From an uncultured Chroococcidiopsis sp. (GTDB lineage: Bacteria > Cyanobacteriota > Cyanobacteriia > Cyanobacteriales > Chroococcidiopsidaceae), in assembly GCA_964248365.1 (NCBI GenBank), contig CAXTYC010000002.1:1-64000 (forward strand): a DNA stretch of 64,000 nt, in the 5' to 3' direction. A program made the translations under genes and the position numbers. How positions within the stretch are numbered: position 1 is the stretch's first letter; every line of letters begins with the position of its first letter. Under the pieces are notes generated by a model, which was not told where the DNA came from, searched no databases, and saw nothing but the letters and a program-made list of their open reading frames with translations. This document shows, piece by piece, positions 1 to 6,859 of this stretch.

Positions 1-2
1 AA

Positions 3-197
3 AACTGTAGTCCTTATCCTGTATACCTCAGAGCTTTTCTTCGTGCCATTCGGACATATTACAAAGAAGAAGAAAGGTTAGACACGATCGCTTTGGCTGG
101 GGAGAGCCTGGGATTTATGCTTGCATTCTCGATACTGCTTGTCCTTGTCCCATTACTTATATATAGTCTTTTTAGCGATCGTCCCTTCATAAGTTAA
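3..197 (+). CDS. 3' end of a hypothetical membrane protein entering from the left edge
   Basis: Open frame from position 3 to TAA at 195-197, ending in a hydrophobic segment (LGFMLAFSILLVLVPLLIYSLF). Confidence 0.5.
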   Translation, partial: NCSPYPVYLRAFLRAIRTYYKEEERLDTIALAGESLGFMLAFSILLVLVPLLIYSLFSDRPFIS

Positions 198-483
198 AAG
201 ACATTTAATTTACTTAGAGCAATTACTGTCAGGTAGCATCGGGCAAGCTCCTTCATGGGATCGATGCAGATTAGCAAAGGCGAAACCGCCCTCTTCGACA
301 AAACGCGGTGGTTGATTTTTGACCAGTAGCCCTCCTTAATTCACATATATTGTATATTTCTCCTCTGGTTAGCAAGAGGTGCGATCGCGCTTCTTCGTGC
401 CAGCAGTCACCTCTTGGCAGAATGACTCCAATCTTACGCTGTGTCATTAAAACTACTTTCTTTTTACTTAACGGTAAATCTGC

Positions 484-645
484 TGCATAAAGCTCTCAAG
501 CCAGTCGTAATAACAAAATGAAGGGGTTTTAAACCAAAATCAACAACCTCCTGCATAAAAGTTATGAGTCATTCGTACTGAATAAATGAAGGAGTTTTAC
601 ACATAACAAAAAAAACTCCTGCATAAAACCAAAAAAGCCAACGTA
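484..645 (+). promoter_or_regulatory. Three tandem TGCATA-N16-CGTA elements (ECF-sigma-like promoters) at a 68-bp period
   Basis: TGCATA at 484, 552 and 620; CGTA at 506, 574 and 642; spacer is exactly 16 nt each time. Confidence 0.7.
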
Positions 646-736
646 ATAAACAACAAAGCTAAGCGTTAGGCAACACACAAAGGGTTCTACCCTTATAAAC
701 CAACCAACGAACTATTTGCAAAGGAAGTAACACAAC

Positions 737-1108
737 ATGACTACTAACACAATCAAAACAATTGCTAACTTACTCAAAGCTGGTTTAATCGGTTTCGTAG
801 CCGCTGCTGGATTCGGATTGCTAAGTGTGCCAGCTAAAGCTGATGAAGTCAATCAAGATAATGTGCAAACCAACCAGCAAGAGGGCAAATTTAATACTGG
901 TATTAACCAAAACGAGCAAAACGCCGCAATCCAAAAAAGAGAAACAAGAATCGGCGGACATTCTACCCGTGAAGGTTACTATGACTCAGATAGAGTTAAA
1001 CAAGGCTCAGATCAGTTAAACGATCAATTCGGTGGTGGTAACACTGCTGTGAATCAAAATCACCAAACTGGCAGAATTCAACGCGATCGCACTTCAATTG
1101 GTCGCTAA
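737..1108 (+). CDS. Secreted Q/N-rich protein with two curlin-like repeats
   Basis: Signal-peptide-like leader ending PAKA|D; two ~31-aa repeats including SDQLNDQFGGGNTAVNQ; AAGGAAG RBS-like motif upstream. Confidence 0.85.
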   Translation: MTTNTIKTIANLLKAGLIGFVAAAGFGLLSVPAKADEVNQDNVQTNQQEGKFNTGINQNEQNAAIQKRETRIGGHSTREGYYDSDRVKQGSDQLNDQFGGGNTAVNQNHQTGRIQRDRTSIGR

Positions 1109-1249
1109 ATCAACAGTATAATCGCCCAATCTGATTATTGGGCAACCATCCTCCTCACTTGGCTAATCTTGTTTTTCTGCAACTGTTGGTGATGGCAGGG
1201 TAAAACCCTCCAAGCCTTCCTCAAATTCAAGGCAAAGGAAGTAATTGAC

Positions 1250-1684
1250 ATGGTAAATATCACTTCAACTAAGACAGAAGTGAAATCTAGTAATCTGCTC
1301 AAAGCTTGTCTGCTTGGCTTTATCACCGCAGGAGGACTAGGATTGATTATTCTTCCAGTTGGGGCTGATGTAGTCAGTTCTAGCAGCGCCTCTAACAGTG
1401 CTACTGCTAGCGGTAACGGCAGCGTTAGACAAAGTATTCGCCAAACTAATATTCAACGCAGTGATGGCAAAGGAAATAGTATCTCTATCCAAGATGCCAG
1501 AAACAATGGCACTGCTACTGGCGACGACAATCATATAGATCAAAATATTGAGCAATCGAATGATACTCAGGTGAGTGATGGTGAGGATCACACCTCGCGT
1601 CAAAATGCCGAGAACAATGCTCATACCAGAGGTAGTAACAACCGCATCGAACAACAAATCAACCAAAATATTTTGCGGCGTTAA
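1250..1684 (+). CDS. Secreted Q/N/S-rich protein with three imperfect repeats
   Basis: Leader similar to 737 and 1817 (NLLKAxLxGF); repeats ATGDDNHIDQNIEQ and TRGSNNRIEQQINQ; same CAAAGGAAGTAA motif before the start. Confidence 0.8.
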   Translation: MVNITSTKTEVKSSNLLKACLLGFITAGGLGLIILPVGADVVSSSSASNSATASGNGSVRQSIRQTNIQRSDGKGNSISIQDARNNGTATGDDNHIDQNIEQSNDTQVSDGEDHTSRQNAENNAHTRGSNNRIEQQINQNILRR

Positions 1685-1732
1685 TTTCCTCCCTCCTGAT
1701 ATTGATGTTGTACTCAAAACCAACTTGAATTT

Positions 1733-1758
1733 TGCATAAAAGCAAGAAAGCCAACGTA
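1733..1758 (+). promoter_or_regulatory. Fourth TGCATA-N16-CGTA element
   Basis: TGCATA 1733-1738 and CGTA 1755-1758, 58 nt upstream of the 1817 start. Confidence 0.7.
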
Positions 1759-1816
1759 GATTACTGTAACGTCACCCAAATCAACTAAAAACAATTTCCA
1801 AAGGAAGTAACACAAC

Positions 1817-2209
1817 ATGACAACTAACACAATCAAAACTACTGCTAACTTACTCAAAGCTGGTTTAATTGGCTTCGTGGCTGCTGCTGGATTTGGATTG
1901 CTCACTGTGCCAGCTAAAGCTGATGAGATTAACCAGGATTCTGTGCAAACCACACAGCAAGATGGTGTCAATAACACTGCTGTGAATCAATCTACCCAAA
2001 ATGCACAAATCAAAGATTCTGCCAGAAGAGTTGGACGCACTGGCTTTGCTCCCTCTGAGCCTGATGTAATTAAACAACGCTCAGATCAGTTGAACGATCA
2101 AATCGGCGAAGGCAACACCGCTGTGAACCAAAACAACCAGGACGCTTCTATCAATAAAAATACCCGCGAGATCAACGTCCGCCGCGAACGTAGACATTAC
2201 CAATACTAA
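1817..2209 (+). CDS. Secreted Q/N-rich curlin-like repeat protein, paralog of 737-1108
   Basis: Leader nearly identical to 737; repeats SVQTTQQDGVNNTAVNQ and SDQLNDQIGEGNTAVNQ. Confidence 0.85.
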   Translation: MTTNTIKTTANLLKAGLIGFVAAAGFGLLTVPAKADEINQDSVQTTQQDGVNNTAVNQSTQNAQIKDSARRVGRTGFAPSEPDVIKQRSDQLNDQIGEGNTAVNQNNQDASINKNTREINVRRERRHYQY

Positions 2210-2568
2210 GTCGCTACCTGGTACGGGCGAACTGGCGACCTTCGCCCCTATATGCCCCACCTAATTTTCTACAACTATGATAATCGCGGGGTTTTTCCTC
2301 TATCTCAACCCCCATTTATAAGACTTCTTGCCCCTTCGCGGGAAAAGGGAAAAGGGAAAAGGGACTTGGTATTAATTTTCCATTTCCCTTTCACCTTTAA
2401 CCTTTTACCACCAGGCACTAATTGCTAGACAATCTTTCTCACGCCCACCCTTAGATAATTGAGAGTAACGCTAAGGCAATACTCATTAGTAGGTTAAAAA
2501 CAGGTTTTGTCGGTTGCCTAAACGAAAGCATAGAAAAACCGATTTCCTATTTAGGAAGGAATCAATTA

Positions 2569-2940
2569 ATGATTACCAAGCAGTCAATTTCATTACTAAT
2601 TTTGTCTGCTTTTCTAGTACTACCAAGTGGAATTGCTAAAGCAGGCGACGTTGATGTTCAAACTGGCAATATGCGGACAACTATTAGTCAGGATTGGGAC
2701 ATTAGCGTCAAAAATGGCGGATCTGAAGTAATTATCAACCGCGATCGCACATCTCCAAATATTCGCCGCCAGCGAATCTACAACCGCATCAAAAATAGAA
2801 CTTGGCGCGGTTATCCTCAAGTTCGCCGCACTCAAAACACTTGTAGAAGTGGCAATTATAGCTATCAAAGCTCTCAAACAACTGTTTCTAGCAATGGCGT
2901 TAGCCGCACTCGCAGTTCTGAATCTACAGTGTGTAACTAG
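2569..2940 (+). CDS. Secreted hypothetical protein (Arg-rich middle, two C-terminal Cys)
   Basis: Signal peptide ending IAKA|G; AGGAAGGA RBS. Confidence 0.75.
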   Translation: MITKQSISLLILSAFLVLPSGIAKAGDVDVQTGNMRTTISQDWDISVKNGGSEVIINRDRTSPNIRRQRIYNRIKNRTWRGYPQVRRTQNTCRSGNYSYQSSQTTVSSNGVSRTRSSESTVCN

Positions 2941-2977
2941 CTAACTTCATTTTTTGGATTTTTACCAGGAGGTAAAA

Positions 2978-3358
2978 GTGTTCAAATTTTTGTCCTTGGG
3001 CTTATTCTCAATTTCGGCTTTATTTACCCTAGCTGCTACCACCATTAAACCCGCGAGTGCTGTCTGCACAACCACTGATGTCAATGTTCAAGTTGCTGTC
3101 TCAAAAAATCCAGCACAACAAGACAATGATGTAGCAGTGGACAGGGATAAAGATTGCTTCAACAACAATAGCACCCACACCTCAACTCAAGTCGGCAAAG
3201 GTGAAAATGTCAGACAAACACGTAGAAGCGAATATCGTCAGGGTGGTAGTGGGTATGATAAACTGCATGAACTAGGAGTAGAAACTCCCAACATTGACAC
3301 TGGTGTCGATGTGAGAGTTAATGTTCCCAATGCAGAAGGCGCTCTGCAACGTCGTTAA
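2978..3358 (+). CDS. Secreted hypothetical protein with two Cys
   Basis: GTG start at 2978 after GGAGGT; signal peptide ending PASA|V; mature region VCTTTDVNVQVAV...DCFNNNSTHTSTQV. Confidence 0.75.
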   Translation: MFKFLSLGLFSISALFTLAATTIKPASAVCTTTDVNVQVAVSKNPAQQDNDVAVDRDKDCFNNNSTHTSTQVGKGENVRQTRRSEYRQGGSGYDKLHELGVETPNIDTGVDVRVNVPNAEGALQRR

Positions 3359-3442
3359 ATTCAAGTTTCAATTTACCCTCCTCTAGTTTCCAGGCGATCG
3401 CCTGGAAGCTTACCTGTATATTGAAGTTTATTCTAGATCTGC

Positions 3443-3479
3443 TGCCCCTTTTTTACCTTAGTTTTTCGTAAAAGGGGCA
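3443..3479 (+). terminator. Stem-loop after the small secreted-protein genes (possible terminator)
   Basis: TGCCCCTTTT ... AAAAGGGGCA inverted repeat. Confidence 0.45.
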
Positions 3480-3631
3480 AGTGGTGTTGTATCTAGTTAA
3501 ATACACGAGGGCGATCGCAACTAAGGAGGCTACCACTTGCTCTCAGGTTCAACCTGGCAGTCAAATAACTAAGGCTCTGCCTTAGTTTAAAACTAATGAA
3601 TTCTAAGTTTTTTAAACTCTGAATAAAAAGT

Positions 3632-4144
3632 ATGTCTATTTCTACAATATTCGCAATTTTCTTGGTAGCTTCTAATTATACTGCTTCGTTTCAAAACTTT
3701 ATAGCCATCAAAGAAAATAATTTTATTAAATCAGTTCACCACAATAAAACTACCATGAACCATTTTAGTAATTTTGCCTATTCAAGCAGTTTTACTACTG
3801 CTCAAGCACAAAGTTCATTTCAACAGCAAACAACTGGTGTAAGCATTAACTTAAATGATTTAAAAACACCTCATATATTGAGTATTAATACTACAGAAAA
3901 TGCTCAATTGAGCGGAGAAGTTACTATAGACAGTGTAGTAATTAAAAAATTGCAAGGCAGTCAAATGAAATTTGACTTATCCCCTTATCTGGCAAAAGGA
4001 GTCAAGAAAGTCGAAATTTCAGGTAATTATAAACCTGCATCGTCCTCAGTTAAAATTGAATTTTCAGGTCTTAGCACCCAGGTAACACAACAAATGAGGG
4101 GTAATGGCACATTAAGACAAACTCTAATTGTTAGTGTACATTAA
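3632..4144 (+). CDS. Hypothetical exported protein with a beta-rich C-terminal domain
   Basis: 170-aa ORF with a hydrophobic N-terminus and alternating beta-strand patterns in the C-terminal ~110 aa. Confidence 0.7.
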   Translation: MSISTIFAIFLVASNYTASFQNFIAIKENNFIKSVHHNKTTMNHFSNFAYSSSFTTAQAQSSFQQQTTGVSINLNDLKTPHILSINTTENAQLSGEVTIDSVVIKKLQGSQMKFDLSPYLAKGVKKVEISGNYKPASSSVKIEFSGLSTQVTQQMRGNGTLRQTLIVSVH

Positions 4145-4259
4145 TTATCTTGTTGTTGGCACAATTAAACAACGATAAGGGCTTACGAATATTAAGGCAA
4201 CGTACTTAATAGTATAGCAGCTCGTCTTATAGATTAGGACAAGTCAATTTACTAATCTA

Positions 4260-4319
4260 CTCCCTCTCTTACCTCGTTCCGCGCCGAGGAAACCTCCGCG
4301 CTTGTCTTCGCGCTACTCC
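4260..4319. repeat. 60-bp small dispersed repeat, copy 1
   Basis: 56/60 identical to 60013-60072; contains a GAGG-AAA-CCTC hairpin. Confidence 0.8.
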
Positions 4320-4354
4320 TTACTCTCTACTTTCTAAAAGTCGCAGGGGTTGAA

Positions 4355-5593
4355 ATGGCTGATGATAGCAATAACTCCAATTTTTTGAGAATTGTCTATA
4401 CTAAGGTAAAAACCAACGGAAAAACAGAATTAGTTCCGCTAAAACTTTATACGGAAGTTCCGCTTGAAGAAATTACATTACCTGCCTCTGTGACAACAGA
4501 AGCAGCCATACCCCTAGGGACAATAATCAGCAACCACTATTTAATTCGGAGAGTTTTGGGGCAAGGTGGTTTTGGTCGCACATACCTAGCATCTGATCTA
4601 CATTGTTTTAATAAATATTGTGTTCTAAAAGAGTTTTTACCGAACTTAATAGAAGAAAGTTATCAACAAAAATCTCGTGATTTATTTGAAAGAGAAGCAA
4701 AAATATTATATCAAATAAATCACCCTCAAATTCCAAAGTTTCAAGCTTGTTTTGAAGACAAGGGACGAATGTTTTTAGTACAAGAATATGTGGAGGGTAA
4801 AACCTACTCGGCTCTTTTGAAAGAGCGCATTTCTCAGCAAAATAAAGCCTTTGATGAAACTGAAATAATCCAGTGGCTAAAGGATATACTACCTGTTTTA
4901 GATTATATTCATCAGCATAACATTATTCACCGAGATATTTCTCCTGATAATATCATCCAAGATAGTGGTAAAAATTTGCCTGTATTGATAGATTTTGGTG
5001 TGGGTAAGCAGAGTATAGAGCAGTCTAACTCAAATTCTTCTTATGCAAGGCAGAAATCAGTAGTAGGAAAACTTGGCTATGCTCCCGCTGAACAAATTTG
5101 TCTAGGGCAATGTTTTCCCAGCAGCGATCTTTATGCATTAGGTGTTACTGCTGTTGTTCTGTTGACAGGTAAAGCACCAGAAGTTTTACTGGATCGGTAT
5201 TCTCTAGAGTGGCAATGGCAAAACTACATCAGTGTTAGTCCCACTTTAGCTGAAGTTTTAAACAAAATGCTAGCGGATAAGCCGAAGCACCGTTATCATT
5301 GTGCAATAGATGTTCTCAATGCTCTTGGGCTTTCAAAATCGACTAGGGTTACGGCTGTAAATCAAGTTGCCCAAAACATAGCATTGGATAAGCAACAAGT
5401 ATTACTTAATTCGGCTTTTATAGAACTTTGTCAACAAGAATTAGCTAATTGTATAGGTCCGATCGCGGGGTTTCTAATTCAAAATATATTAAACAAAAAT
5501 CCAGTCATATCTGCCCAAACATTAGTTGAGGAATTAGTAGCACACATTCCCAATCCACAATCTGCGCTCGCATTTCGCCACCGTGTACTTTGA
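4355..5593 (+). CDS. Serine/threonine protein kinase (Hanks type)
   Basis: LGQGGFGRTY, VLKE, HRDISPDN, DFG and GYAPAEQ motifs; small C-terminal helical domain. Confidence 0.93.
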   Translation: MADDSNNSNFLRIVYTKVKTNGKTELVPLKLYTEVPLEEITLPASVTTEAAIPLGTIISNHYLIRRVLGQGGFGRTYLASDLHCFNKYCVLKEFLPNLIEESYQQKSRDLFEREAKILYQINHPQIPKFQACFEDKGRMFLVQEYVEGKTYSALLKERISQQNKAFDETEIIQWLKDILPVLDYIHQHNIIHRDISPDNIIQDSGKNLPVLIDFGVGKQSIEQSNSNSSYARQKSVVGKLGYAPAEQICLGQCFPSSDLYALGVTAVVLLTGKAPEVLLDRYSLEWQWQNYISVSPTLAEVLNKMLADKPKHRYHCAIDVLNALGLSKSTRVTAVNQVAQNIALDKQQVLLNSAFIELCQQELANCIGPIAGFLIQNILNKNPVISAQTLVEELVAHIPNPQSALAFRHRVL

Positions 5594-5746
5594 GTCGGCA
5601 TAGGATGAAAAATTGCTAATTTTGCTGGCTCTAATCCTGACATGAACTACTACTAAAAGCTAGACTTGAGCAATCTTTTTGTTAGGTGGCGCAAAGGGTG
5701 TAAATCTACCGCTTTGCTATTCATTATTTTATTGGAGAAAACAGCA

Positions 5747-6859
5747 ATGAAATTACATTTGAGCCTGCAAGCAGTAGCGCTCGCTTTGGGCTTGGGCTTG
5801 CTAGCAACTGGAGAAGTTAACGCCAAGCCTGTCAAATATAGCTTTACCCAAATTGCTAACACCAGTGGTAACTTTAGCAGCCTCGGTGTTCCCGTTATCA
5901 ATAACTTGGGAATTGTTGGTTTTACGGCTGGATTAAATCGAGGAGGAAAAGGTGTTTTCAGTAGCAATGGTAATACAACAACTACCATTGCCGACACCAA
6001 TAGCAACTTTAAATACTTAGGTGATGATATCTCGATTAATGATACTGGAACTGTGGCGTTTATGGGTTCCCAGAATCAACCAAATCCTCAGTCAGTTGGA
6101 GTTTATACCAGCAATGGCAGAACATTGAAACCTATCATCACTACTCCTACTACTGATGAAAACGGTGTGGGATTTAGAGCTAATTCTTTTGAAGAAGTAT
6201 CAATAAATAATGCCGGAACTGTAGCTTTGATTGAAACTATCTCATCACGGGTGCAGGTTGTCCTCACAAGTGACGGTAGTAACACTAAGAAAATATCTGC
6301 ATCTGATCCTCCCCGCAAAAGTGGAGTACAGATTAATGATGTTGGTACTGTAGTTTACAGCTATGATATTTTCGGAATTTATACTGGAGATAGCTCTACA
6401 ACTCCTCCCATTGCCACTGCTAGCGGGTTTTCTGACGGCAAAGTGAATTTTGTTGCTAGTCCCTCGCTCAACAATACTGGCGCTTTTGCTTATGTTAGTG
6501 GAGTTGCAGATGAAGCAAAAAATTCAATCATAGAAAGCAAAGTTTTGCTCAAAAGAGGTGATAAAATAATCACAGTTGCTGATACAAATGCTGATTTTAG
6601 TAGCTTTGGTAATACCTCAATTAACGATAGAGGAAAAGTAGCTTTTATAGCTAACCTCGATGCCGGAGGTGAAGGAATATATACTGGTAATAATCTCAAA
6701 ACTAATAAAGTCATTGCTACTGGGGATAGTCTGTTTGGTTCCACAGTAGTAGACTTAGATTTTTCCCCAGAAGGGCTGAATAATTTGGGTCAAATTACGT
6801 TTGTTGCCAAACTTGCTAATAATACTCAGGTTGTTGCCCGTACTAACTTGAAGCAATAG
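5747..6859 (+). CDS. Secreted NxxGxxAF tandem-repeat (probable beta-propeller) protein
   Basis: ATG 5747 after GGAG; signal peptide; repeats INNLGIVGF, INDTGTVAF, INNAGTVAL, LNNTGAFAY, INDRGKVAF, LNNLGQITF. Confidence 0.8.
   Translation: MKLHLSLQAVALALGLGLLATGEVNAKPVKYSFTQIANTSGNFSSLGVPVINNLGIVGFTAGLNRGGKGVFSSNGNTTTTIADTNSNFKYLGDDISINDTGTVAFMGSQNQPNPQSVGVYTSNGRTLKPIITTPTTDENGVGFRANSFEEVSINNAGTVALIETISSRVQVVLTSDGSNTKKISASDPPRKSGVQINDVGTVVYSYDIFGIYTGDSSTTPPIATASGFSDGKVNFVASPSLNNTGAFAYVSGVADEAKNSIIESKVLLKRGDKIITVADTNADFSSFGNTSINDRGKVAFIANLDAGGEGIYTGNNLKTNKVIATGDSLFGSTVVDLDFSPEGLNNLGQITFVAKLANNTQVVARTNLKQ

Follow-up and report, generated by a model that had tools for sequence, protein, structure and literature searches.

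A scattered cyanobacterial cluster of six small exported proteins with a candidate cross-beta fibre subunit, curli-like in plan and unrelated to curli by descent

Known fibre amyloids and organization of the locus

The fungal HET-s(218-289), which acts in signalling inside the cell, consists of two loop-joined repeats, shorter than those described here, that provide two rungs per subunit. In curli, the accessory proteins CsgC and CsgH fold as small beta-sandwiches. Curli repeats measure 23 ± 5 aa and follow each other end to end, according to PMC10192328. FapC of Pseudomonas has a small number of long, imperfect repeats with flexible linkers between them, every repeat building a single cross-beta layer with a conserved Asn/Gln network (PMC12392863). 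In cyanobacteria, EbfG1-3 of Synechococcus elongatus PCC 7942 are small secreted matrix proteins from a short operon whose amyloid nature has been shown and whose secretion is attributed to the C39-peptidase transporter PteB (PMC9981879). They are the sole cyanobacterial matrix amyloid found in the literature searched, and little is known about the proteins that scaffold sheaths, crusts and biofilms in cyanobacteria.

We analysed a 64,000-nucleotide stretch (the window) from an uncultured Chroococcidiopsis sp. Six ORFs, all on the plus strand and running from 737 through 4144, constitute a previously undescribed cluster of six small exported proteins that is scattered among cyanobacteria; no description of it was found in a literature search that included locus tags and eggNOG ids and covered mostly papers outside subscription. 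The first gene, A1 (737..1108, 123 aa), encodes the major-subunit candidate, with a Sec-type leader (737-841) and two repeats separated by a linker at mature residues 36-50. The core of repeat 1 (854..919, mature Q5-Q26) comprises a strand, a G-x-x-N arc and a second strand, and the core of repeat 2 lies at 1001..1066 (mature Q54-Q75). B (1250..1684, 144 aa) is a diverged A-family protein with three arcs, and A2 (1817..2209, 130 aa) is a paralogue 64% identical to A1 with repeat cores at 1934-1999 and 2075-2140. D (2569..2940, 123 aa) is exported and basic, E (2978..3358, 126 aa) is exported and starts with GTG behind AGGAGG, and F (3632..4144, 170 aa) is an Ig/Fn3-like beta-sandwich protein that is optional in the cluster. 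The initial annotation had assigned Sec leaders to 737, 1250 and 1817 and probable export to the three proteins downstream. The leaders of 737 and 1817 were recovered, but that of 1250 has no AxA-like end in the scan; export likewise stands for 2569 and 2978, whereas the atypical leader of 3632 includes a hydrophobic segment but lacks both a basic n-region and an AxA end, and therefore export of F is less certain than that of 737, 1817, 2569 and 2978. Rfam gave no match within positions 1-6000 of the window, and sigma-70 and terminator scans gave signals at or below chance.

The A family and its relation to curli, Fap and other amyloids

Both A proteins contain two copies of the repeat Q-x3-Q-x3-[Q/I/V]-x-G-x-x-N-x3-Q-x3-Q, and two full repeats appeared in none of 200,000 shuffles of mature 737 or mature 1817. 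As first described, mature 737, 1250 and 1817 are free of Cys and rich in Q (10-15%) and N (12-15%). Two repeats of about 31 aa had been proposed for 737 and 1817; the copy number holds, but the copies lie 49 residues apart in 737 and 47 in 1817, and the linker varies (median spacing in the family, 44.5). Across 61 aligned sequences (~25 effective), the consensus of repeat 1 reaches 1.00 at Q9, 1.00 at G15, 0.97 at N18 and 0.96 at Q26, and repeat 2 gives near-identical values; these Q, G and N columns are near-invariant despite ~20% pairwise identity in the family. Three segments indeed fit the CsgA-type pattern S-X5-Q-X-G-X2-N-X-A, one in 737 and two in 1817, and the pattern was found in only 3 of 6051 genome ORFs of at least 90 aa; it is lineage-specific, occurring in 7 of 72 family members. 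Moreover, the fourth Q-x-G-x-x-N repeat of E. coli CsgA contains the six-residue stretch found at mature 62-67 in 737. Q-x-G-x-x-N is present twice each in 737 and 1817, whereas at least two copies are found in only 25/72 members. Of the conserved QxGxxN spacing that had been postulated, the arc and glutamine spacing thus persists, but the Q preceding the arc glycine is conserved in only 25% of the family and 1250 lacks the motif.

With facing taken from the prediction, the mean frequency of charged residues is 0.005 at 16 variable inward positions versus 0.245 at 26 outward positions, and the strands of the A repeats contain no proline. On sequence grounds, this alternation fits a buried polar zipper. 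Sizes of facing residues are complementary at one register (rho -0.86), a value that is descriptive only because it follows from the 4-residue period and a register chosen after looking. Scans of the six proteins and the A alignment against Pfam and NCBIfam yielded no convincing match, the best domain match in the A family being pectate-lyase-like (E 3.6e-5, 5 of 61 A members). Profile searches of solved-structure sequences with A, E and F gave nothing significant, and in the ESM Atlas the only clusters to come up were cyanobacterial ones that were unnamed or weak. Two other candidate identities were dropped on sequence features: RiPP precursors, since the leaders appear Sec-type and modifying enzymes are absent nearby, and pilins, since the prepilin Glu5 is absent.

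The A family shares with curli Sec-exported, Cys-free subunits with imperfect Q/N-rich repeats, two strands linked through a G-x-x-N arc, adjacent subunit paralogues, a candidate small beta-sandwich accessory (here F) and, as predicted here, head-to-tail stacking of beta-arches. In contrast, its glutamine-based repeat differs from the N-x-hydrophobe-x-hydrophobe-x-Q of curli, its strands are 15-19 residues long, and most members have two repeats ~45 residues apart, whereas CsgA has five repeats 22-23 apart. QX10Q occurs once in the A protein, at unconserved positions, compared with 7 times in CsgA and 10 times in CsgB. Curlin_rpt (PF07012) was detected in none of the window proteins, the genome or the 61 family members, although the E. 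coli control matched, and the A-family profile scored -1.9 bits on CsgA and -5.8 bits on CsgB. The initial annotation saw no csgG-like pore in the window, and this absence extends to the whole genome (G000, 99.97% complete), where CsgE, CsgF and CsgG were all missing while the controls matched. CsgG was also not found in the cluster-bearing genomes G002, G005, G011 and G035; a CsgG-family gene is present in 4 of 8 cluster-bearing near relatives, far off or on another contig. The curli-like label therefore survives as a working plan and not as homology: the A family resembles curli in how it would work without belonging to curli, and the two are unrelated by descent.

Fap resembles the cluster in its few linker-joined long repeats, in a conserved Asn/Gln network, in the single cross-beta layer of each repeat, which for A is a prediction, and in its compact set of small exported accessory proteins. 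However, the three FapC repeats adopt a five-strand Greek key, whereas A is predicted to have two long strands per repeat. FapC gave no sequence match to A among solved chains, and no gene for a C39 peptidase or FapF-like barrel was seen in the clusters read. A genome search with PF13557, which we take to be FapF-linked, had no match, though its control matched nowhere either. EbfG1-3 are likewise small secreted cyanobacterial matrix proteins of amyloid type, properties that are only candidate ones for the A family (secretion, matrix role and amyloid alike); by description they are set apart by the PteB route, as against the Sec-type leaders and Q-ladder repeat here. Like HET-s(218-289), the A monomer has two loop-joined repeats and two predicted rungs.

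Accessory genes, distribution and the upstream element

B contains no Q-x-G-x-x-N; its arcs, three in number and looser, lie 36-37 residues apart at mature positions 16, 52 and 89. As a diverged A-family protein it scores 12.3 bits versus 6.8 for the best of 2000 shuffles, and orthologues occur in loci L021-L023, L025 and L027. It is a candidate minor subunit or nucleator. D has N-terminal amphipathic strands, an Arg-rich linker and a C-terminal S/T-rich segment flanked by two invariant Cys 30 residues apart. E is the best-conserved marker of the cluster, with an alternating beta-strand pattern and invariant C2, Q10, C32, Q43 and Q52 (mature numbering). D and E each probably carry a disulfide-closed segment. 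Profile-profile comparison of A with D and E gave probabilities of 0.1 and 0.4, not significant, within a range of 0.1-6.7 over A-E, A-D, A-G and E-D; as the A profile aligns significantly with neither, D and E are viewed as fibre subunits by analogy. F consists of an S/Q-rich segment followed by a beta-sandwich with two long C-terminal strands. Its fold search returned a generic beta-sandwich, with unrelated proteins at the best Z scores of 6.1 (rmsd 3.5, 84 aligned) and 6.9 (rmsd 2.7, 79 aligned); CsgC and CsgH were absent from the best 50 fold matches listed, and the F profile scored 2.3 bits on CsgC. Pfam scans of the E, F and G alignments found nothing convincing, and the candidate membrane gene G was absent here and from three other cluster-bearing genomes tested.

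E is present in 32 of 401 sampled genomes, across the class, and no relative was found in the viral contigs or plasmids searched; an RNA holder was likewise absent from the listing. Cultured carriers include Chroococcidiopsis thermalis PCC 7203, CCMEE 29, Leptolyngbya boryana and Nostoc spongiaeforme FACHB-130. In the 29 E-centred loci, an A gene lies within ~1.5 kb in 22, D in 15 and F in 16, counted with family profiles that had been iterated on these very loci. The proposed linkage of the six genes is thus seen as a recurring cluster in relatives, and these data support a conserved and linked order of repeat genes followed by D, E and F.

A conserved DNA element, TGCATAA-N15-CGTA, lies upstream of A genes. 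The initial annotation, whose range opens at 484 with the first copy, does not mention it. Here, three plus-strand copies precede 737: the first, at 484..509, is ECF-promoter-like and falls below the score threshold of the genome-scan matrix, and those at 552..577 and 620..645 are the fifth and second best sites of the genome. A fourth copy before A2 (1733..1758, +) ranks fourth. With a matrix built solely from relatives' elements, the top five sites of this genome are all in front of A genes, and the sixth precedes a gene whose family name we take to be manganese catalase. A genes are often multiplied with upstream elements of their own, and solo A genes with the element and no adjoining D, E or F occur in L010, L029 and L030. 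Among the sigma region-2/region-4 matches inspected, none was a SigI-sized ECF.

A Ser/Thr protein kinase gene, named from motifs, lies behind F (4355..5593, +) and is syntenic there in nearer relatives. A degenerate element precedes it at 4181..4204 (+), with intact copies at the same place in L024 and L028, and the kinase is possibly co-regulated with the cluster. Its N-terminus matched only loci of nearer relatives, though most of the distant loci extend just 1.5 kb. The kinase reads as cytoplasmic, whereas the fibre-candidate subunits bear export leaders.

A distant A member, P0046 (WP_250122792.1 of Chroococcidiopsis sp. CCMEE 29), scores 45.6 bits on a leave-out A profile versus 16.9 for the best of 2000 shuffles, while showing no pairwise similarity to 737 (E 0.17). 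Under perchlorate this protein changed by log2 +5.35 at 24 mM, +4.91 at 12 mM and +0.74 at 2.4 mM, and two adjacent accessions rose too (PMC12990341, supplementary table). One family member is therefore already up ~40-fold under chaotropic salt; these data concern strain CCMEE 29 and bear on the present genome only indirectly. The element marking A genes and the link to published perchlorate proteomics are new here.

Predicted assembly and competing explanations

The AlphaFold2 monomer of A shows four long strands and places turns at the arcs, at low confidence (pLDDT 56.7, pTM 0.34). Searches with it gave no match in Foldseek at E 0.001 or in VIA at Z 2; amyloids filled the first four Foldseek rows (FapC, E 0.097, TM 0.17; HET-s, E 2.1; TM 0.13-0.17 overall), none significant, and we gave these rows from a pLDDT-57 model no weight. 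As the stacked beta-arch check foresaw, the ESMFold2 model of four copies is head-to-tail, in register and open-ended, with a score of 0.55 versus 0.00 for the best of three controls. The runs share at least 92% of their contacts, the pLDDT of the partners is at least 74, and residues 49-87 contact residues 1-39 at an offset of ~49. Of the proteins solved as pairs, 20 of 30 attained the 0.55 mark, as did 1 of 23 known as single chains; this calibration set is unlike the present job with its four copies and custom alignment. The pass may also reflect likeness to solved beta-solenoid amyloids.

We consider it fairly probable that, under stress, the cluster makes a cross-beta fibre from Sec-exported subunits of two rungs each, with minor subunits besides. 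Such a self-assembling beta-arcade fibre would have evolved apart from curli and Fap. Judging from conservation and the models, each repeat would form one beta-arch rung of two long strands and a G-x-x-N arc, with Q/N ladders and small residues inward, charged residues outward and linkers looped out. Repeat 2 of one monomer is predicted to stack in register with repeat 1 of its neighbour, so that the fibre would be polar, have open ends and gain two rungs with every monomer. By analogy, B, D and E could be low-abundance nucleator, cap or anchor subunits, and F, a soluble beta-sandwich, could serve as a helper or form part of the tip. Given the element shared by A genes and the perchlorate induction of a distant member, the fibre would probably strengthen the envelope or sheath when salt or drying stresses the cell. 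Since CsgG is missing, subunits would take a general path through the outer membrane or else form polymers within the periplasm or cell wall; we lean slightly towards a location outside the cell. The amyloid may even be deposited inside the periplasm or cell wall, stiffening the envelope of stress-tolerant cyanobacteria. Somewhat short of an even chance is the broader view of a third independently evolved Gram-negative fibre amyloid beside curli and Fap, dedicated to cyanobacteria, with two-rung Q-ladder subunits, its own nucleator and caps, a stress promoter and no CsgG/FapF pore. If the fibre exists, it represents a new beta-arcade architecture and raises the question of how, in the absence of CsgG, amyloid subunits exit the periplasm or are tolerated inside it. 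The mature A subunit, with 88 residues and no Cys, is easily expressed and tested.

The same stacking could instead make a stress-induced envelope complex, a short hetero-oligomer of the periplasm or cell wall in which D, E and F cap A and B. The absence of CsgG, CsgE and CsgF, the presence of D and E beside A in most loci and the general enrichment of periplasm and envelope reported in the perchlorate study (PMC12990341) agree with this, but the predicted interface leaves both ends open, the multiplied A genes with their own elements suit a bulk subunit, and the solo A genes have no D, E or F alongside; we regard such a capped complex as unlikely. A reading of the A proteins as soluble, disordered, LEA-like hydrophilins protecting the periplasm in salt or drying stress draws on their hydrophilic, Gly/Q/N-rich composition, the low monomer pLDDT, the perchlorate induction and the element before the presumed manganese catalase gene. 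Strict alternation and near-invariant Q, G and N at ~20% identity would be unexpected for a disordered protectant, and with four copies modelled pLDDT climbs to 74-76, making this reading more doubtful still. It is quite improbable that the two-rung amyloid, in place of forming a structural matrix, serves to nucleate mineral or ice or to send a signal to the kinase next to it: the loop-linked layout recalls HET-s and the kinase is syntenic with the same element in L024 and L028, but the outward face lacks a conserved Thr ladder (mean Thr 0.116), exported subunits are paired with an apparently cytoplasmic kinase, and kinase matches are confined to nearer relatives, albeit with most of the distant loci spanning just 1.5 kb. 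That the A proteins are diverged CsgA/CsgB orphans using a CsgG-type pore is largely refuted and very improbable, since the Q-x-G-x-x-N arc common to this lineage and the CsgG-family genes of some relatives are outweighed by the missing Curlin_rpt, the negative profile scores, the failure to find CsgG in five cluster-bearing genomes and its remote position elsewhere, and the different repeat number and spacing. Close A homologues carry the JGI label 'major curlin subunit', an automatic name that the preferred reading of a separately evolved fibre would correct.

Gene content and distribution of the cluster

ORFs 737 (A1), 1250 (B), 1817 (A2), 2569 (D), 2978 (E) and 3632 (F) were confirmed as collinear on the + strand of the window, and scans of both Pfam and NCBIfam gave no convincing family for any of the six proteins. 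A1 and A2 are paralogues (64% identity). A third A copy lies alone on contig C52 (27312-27904; locus L010), adjoining a transposase-like ORF; it has two copies of an upstream element, TGCATAA-N15-CGTA, and some of the same 3′ flanking sequence. Since solo copies were also found at loci L029 and L030, it seems that the A gene is duplicated together with its element. Contig C2 of this genome (5.58 Mb, 99.97% complete) begins with the window, and because bases 1-55 are multi-copy sequence present at several contig ends, the context upstream of the cluster is lost. Between A2 and D (2320-2410) lies a dispersed repeat whose core is an inverted repeat and which has about 10 matches in the genome.

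The cluster is real, conserved and expressed in a relative, and is undescribed in the literature searched. Relatives of A1 occur in 8 of 61 near genomes. The initial annotation had set linkage of the six genes as a check, and this linkage is borne out by the order kept in assembled near-relative loci (A-B-A-D-E-F-kinase or A-A-D-E-F-kinase) and by A in 22 of 29 E-centred loci read about 1.5 kb either side, where D was found in 15, F in 16 and G, a further gene of some relatives' clusters, in 7. Seven of the E loci lack A: in one of these it lies 4.5 kb off, another stops at a contig edge and the other five carry small exported two-repeat genes below threshold. An alignment of five near E sequences matched 30 of 401 class genomes (18 genera); broader profiles, which include sequences of genomes then counted and for which about 12 candidates were scored per genome, matched 32 (E), 34 (F) and 30 (A) of the 401. 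Two of the 32 E matches were weak, each at most 0.5 kb from an F match, and 24 of the 30 A-carrying genomes also have E.

The distribution is patchy, with named carriers including C. thermalis PCC 7203 (Chro_5045, E), Nostoc spongiaeforme FACHB-130, Leptolyngbya boryana and Myxacorys almedinensis. Among named sequences, those closest to E are Chroococcidiopsis proteins (65-66% identical) and one from a MAG record titled Leptolyngbyaceae (77%). The sole non-cyanobacterial record title seen was Rhizobium (L034), yet this locus holds a typical cyanobacterial version; the title looks like a mislabel, so the record is no evidence of spread beyond cyanobacteria. No relatives of E were found in viral contigs or plasmids. 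Besides its cluster of the window type, genome G011 has a second, distant one (A-D-E-A; L026:8592-10350) about 190 kb away, and G218 has three E and three F genes. In five loci of one genus (L063-L066 and L068), where no D was detected, genes upstream of E encode small exported proteins that have two repeats and a variant G-x-x-N turn (arc) and were missed by the A profile; these may represent another repeat type within the same cluster layout.

Repeat pattern and predicted assembly of the A proteins

The A consensus, drawn from 61 sequences (about 25 effective), comprises Q5 (0.84), Q9 (1.00), [I/Q/T]13, G15 (1.00), N18 (0.97), Q22 (0.76) and Q26 (0.96) in mature A1 numbering and recurs at +49. 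The spacing of arc and glutamines is conserved; the initial annotation had set conserved QxGxxN spacing as a check. Two full repeat copies appeared in none of 200,000 shuffles, for A1 and for A2. In 72 distinct A proteins, a strict pattern detected two arcs in 44, three in 3, one in 21 and none in 4, at spacings of 20-56 residues (median 44.5). The aligned family conserves the arc and a glutamine period of 4 residues and does not conserve the curlin kernel; the CsgA-pattern match claimed for the repeats is real but local, occurring in 7 of the 72.

When the inward face was assigned by parity of the conserved Q and N, independently of any structure model, charged residues made up 0.005 at 16 variable inward positions versus 0.245 at 26 outward positions, and the strands contained no proline. 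This alternation of charge, together with the lack of proline, points to strands that bury one face, free of charge. AlphaFold2 placed strands of the A1 monomer at 2-16, 19-37, 51-65 and 68-86 with low confidence (pLDDT 56.7, pTM 0.34), and fold searches with this model were uninformative. A four-copy model scored 0.55, while the best of three controls scored 0.00; among proteins of solved structure, 20 of 30 pairs reached the score mark, as did 1 of 23 single chains, counts that are only rough here given four copies and an analyst-built alignment. Runs agreed in at least 92% of contacts (partner pLDDT at least 74), with residues 49-87 of one copy on 1-39 of the next (e.g. 71-22, 75-26 and 79-30), an in-register stacking of repeat 2 on repeat 1. 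The predicted geometry is an open-ended beta-arcade, and the model may lean on solved solenoid amyloids.

Relation to curli and the accessory proteins

Profile searches with positive controls found no Curlin_rpt, CsgE, CsgF or CsgG in this genome, so that the absence of a csgG gene noted for the window holds genome-wide, and tblastn with six E. coli Csg proteins gave no match at E 0.1. Of 61 relatives, 16 have a CsgG-family gene, including only four of the eight near cluster carriers, there far from the cluster. CsgG was reported in 41,041 of 43,279 CsgA genomes (PMC10192328). CsgA has arcs every 22-23 residues, in agreement with the 23±5 aa repeats with a QX10Q kernel given in PMC10192328, in contrast to the A-family median. 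Curli are described from at least four phyla (PMC3521004). The JGI name 'major curlin subunit' on close homologues is that source's label, which the curlin and Csg searches do not support. The cluster does not belong to curli, and probably not to Fap either. On balance, we consider that it most likely works like them, forming a secreted beta-arcade polymer that includes minor subunits; of the curli-like amyloid system first proposed, this predicted mode of working is favoured.

B is related to A, weakly but genuinely (12.3 bits on the A profile versus 6.8 for the best shuffle). E has invariant C2, Q10, C32, Q43 and Q52 and alternating strands, and D has two invariant Cys 30 apart, the same spacing as in E; the A profile aligned significantly with neither. 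F was modelled with confidence (pLDDT 90.9) as a beta-sandwich whose two C-terminal strands are long, and its best structural matches are generic Ig/Fn3-like domains (Z 6.1-6.9). G (L057:253-666, - strand; also L058, L060-L062, L067, L069 and L089-L091) is exported and has no Pfam family. It has a half arch like that of A, a coiled coil and an amphipathic segment of two strands, and is a candidate small pore or outer-membrane anchor for the subset of clusters that carry it. It occurs in 4 of 251 phylum genomes, in three beside E and F, and was not found in this genome, G003, G011 or G035.

The Ser/Thr kinase (4355-5593) has a conserved 50-residue N-terminal segment that is present in near relatives' cluster loci. 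A pentapeptide-repeat gene behind F in L063 seems to have a C-terminal end similar by eye to this segment, which tblastn did not confirm. Behind the kinase, an exported protein with NxxGxxAF repeats (TIGR05002, DUF7453; 5747-6859) is syntenic in L028 too. Genes that we take from their motifs to be FecR-like, sigma-70-like and CHAT/TPR-type adjoin the cluster in unrelated lineages (L021:13871-18041, L052:2411-3331, L054, L067 and L069), and a related sigma-like gene lies at C64:1904-3112 of this genome.

Induction under perchlorate and the upstream element

P0046 (WP_250122792.1) of Chroococcidiopsis sp. CCMEE 29, whose A membership is not visible by pairwise BLAST, scored 45.6 bits on a leave-out A profile versus 16.9 for the best of 2000 shuffles. 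Under perchlorate it rose by 5.35 log2 at 24 mM, 4.91 at 12 mM and 0.74 at 2.4 mM (PMC12990341, supplementary table), the top rise at 24 and 12 mM among 14 'contains SignalPeptide' rows, and accessions ...791 and ...790 rose by 4.3 and 3.49. The authors class such proteins just as uncharacterised signal-peptide proteins (PMC12990341, supplement 2). From accession order, we infer that ...791 and ...790 are D and E. Neat TFA at 70 °C would dissolve amyloid, so proteomic detection after such lysis cannot tell soluble from fibrous forms. These were the conditions used for CCMEE 29 cells (PMC12990341).

The upstream element, a new observation for these genes, stands in three copies before A1, in one before A2 and also before the C52 paralogue. 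Bare TGCATA-N16-CGTA occurs 10 times in the genome versus 2-7 times with other spacers; this count alone is weak, and the evidence is the placement before A genes. In a distant family, three loci (L057, L058 and L060) have similar elements ahead of their A genes; none was found in the other clusters of the same genus as the window (L021-L023, L025 and L027). The layout resembles an ECF promoter. Among the sigma region-2 and region-4 matches read in this genome, there was no SigI-sized ECF; cyanobacterial SigI has a predicted -10 CGTA and -35 CATCC (PMC8155712). With a matrix built from 10 instances in relatives only, seven sites in this genome passed the threshold, and the five best lie before A genes. 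The sixth (C4:265977) lies 238 bases before a 321-aa gene, presumably for a manganese catalase, and so hints that the element may serve a small stress regulon.
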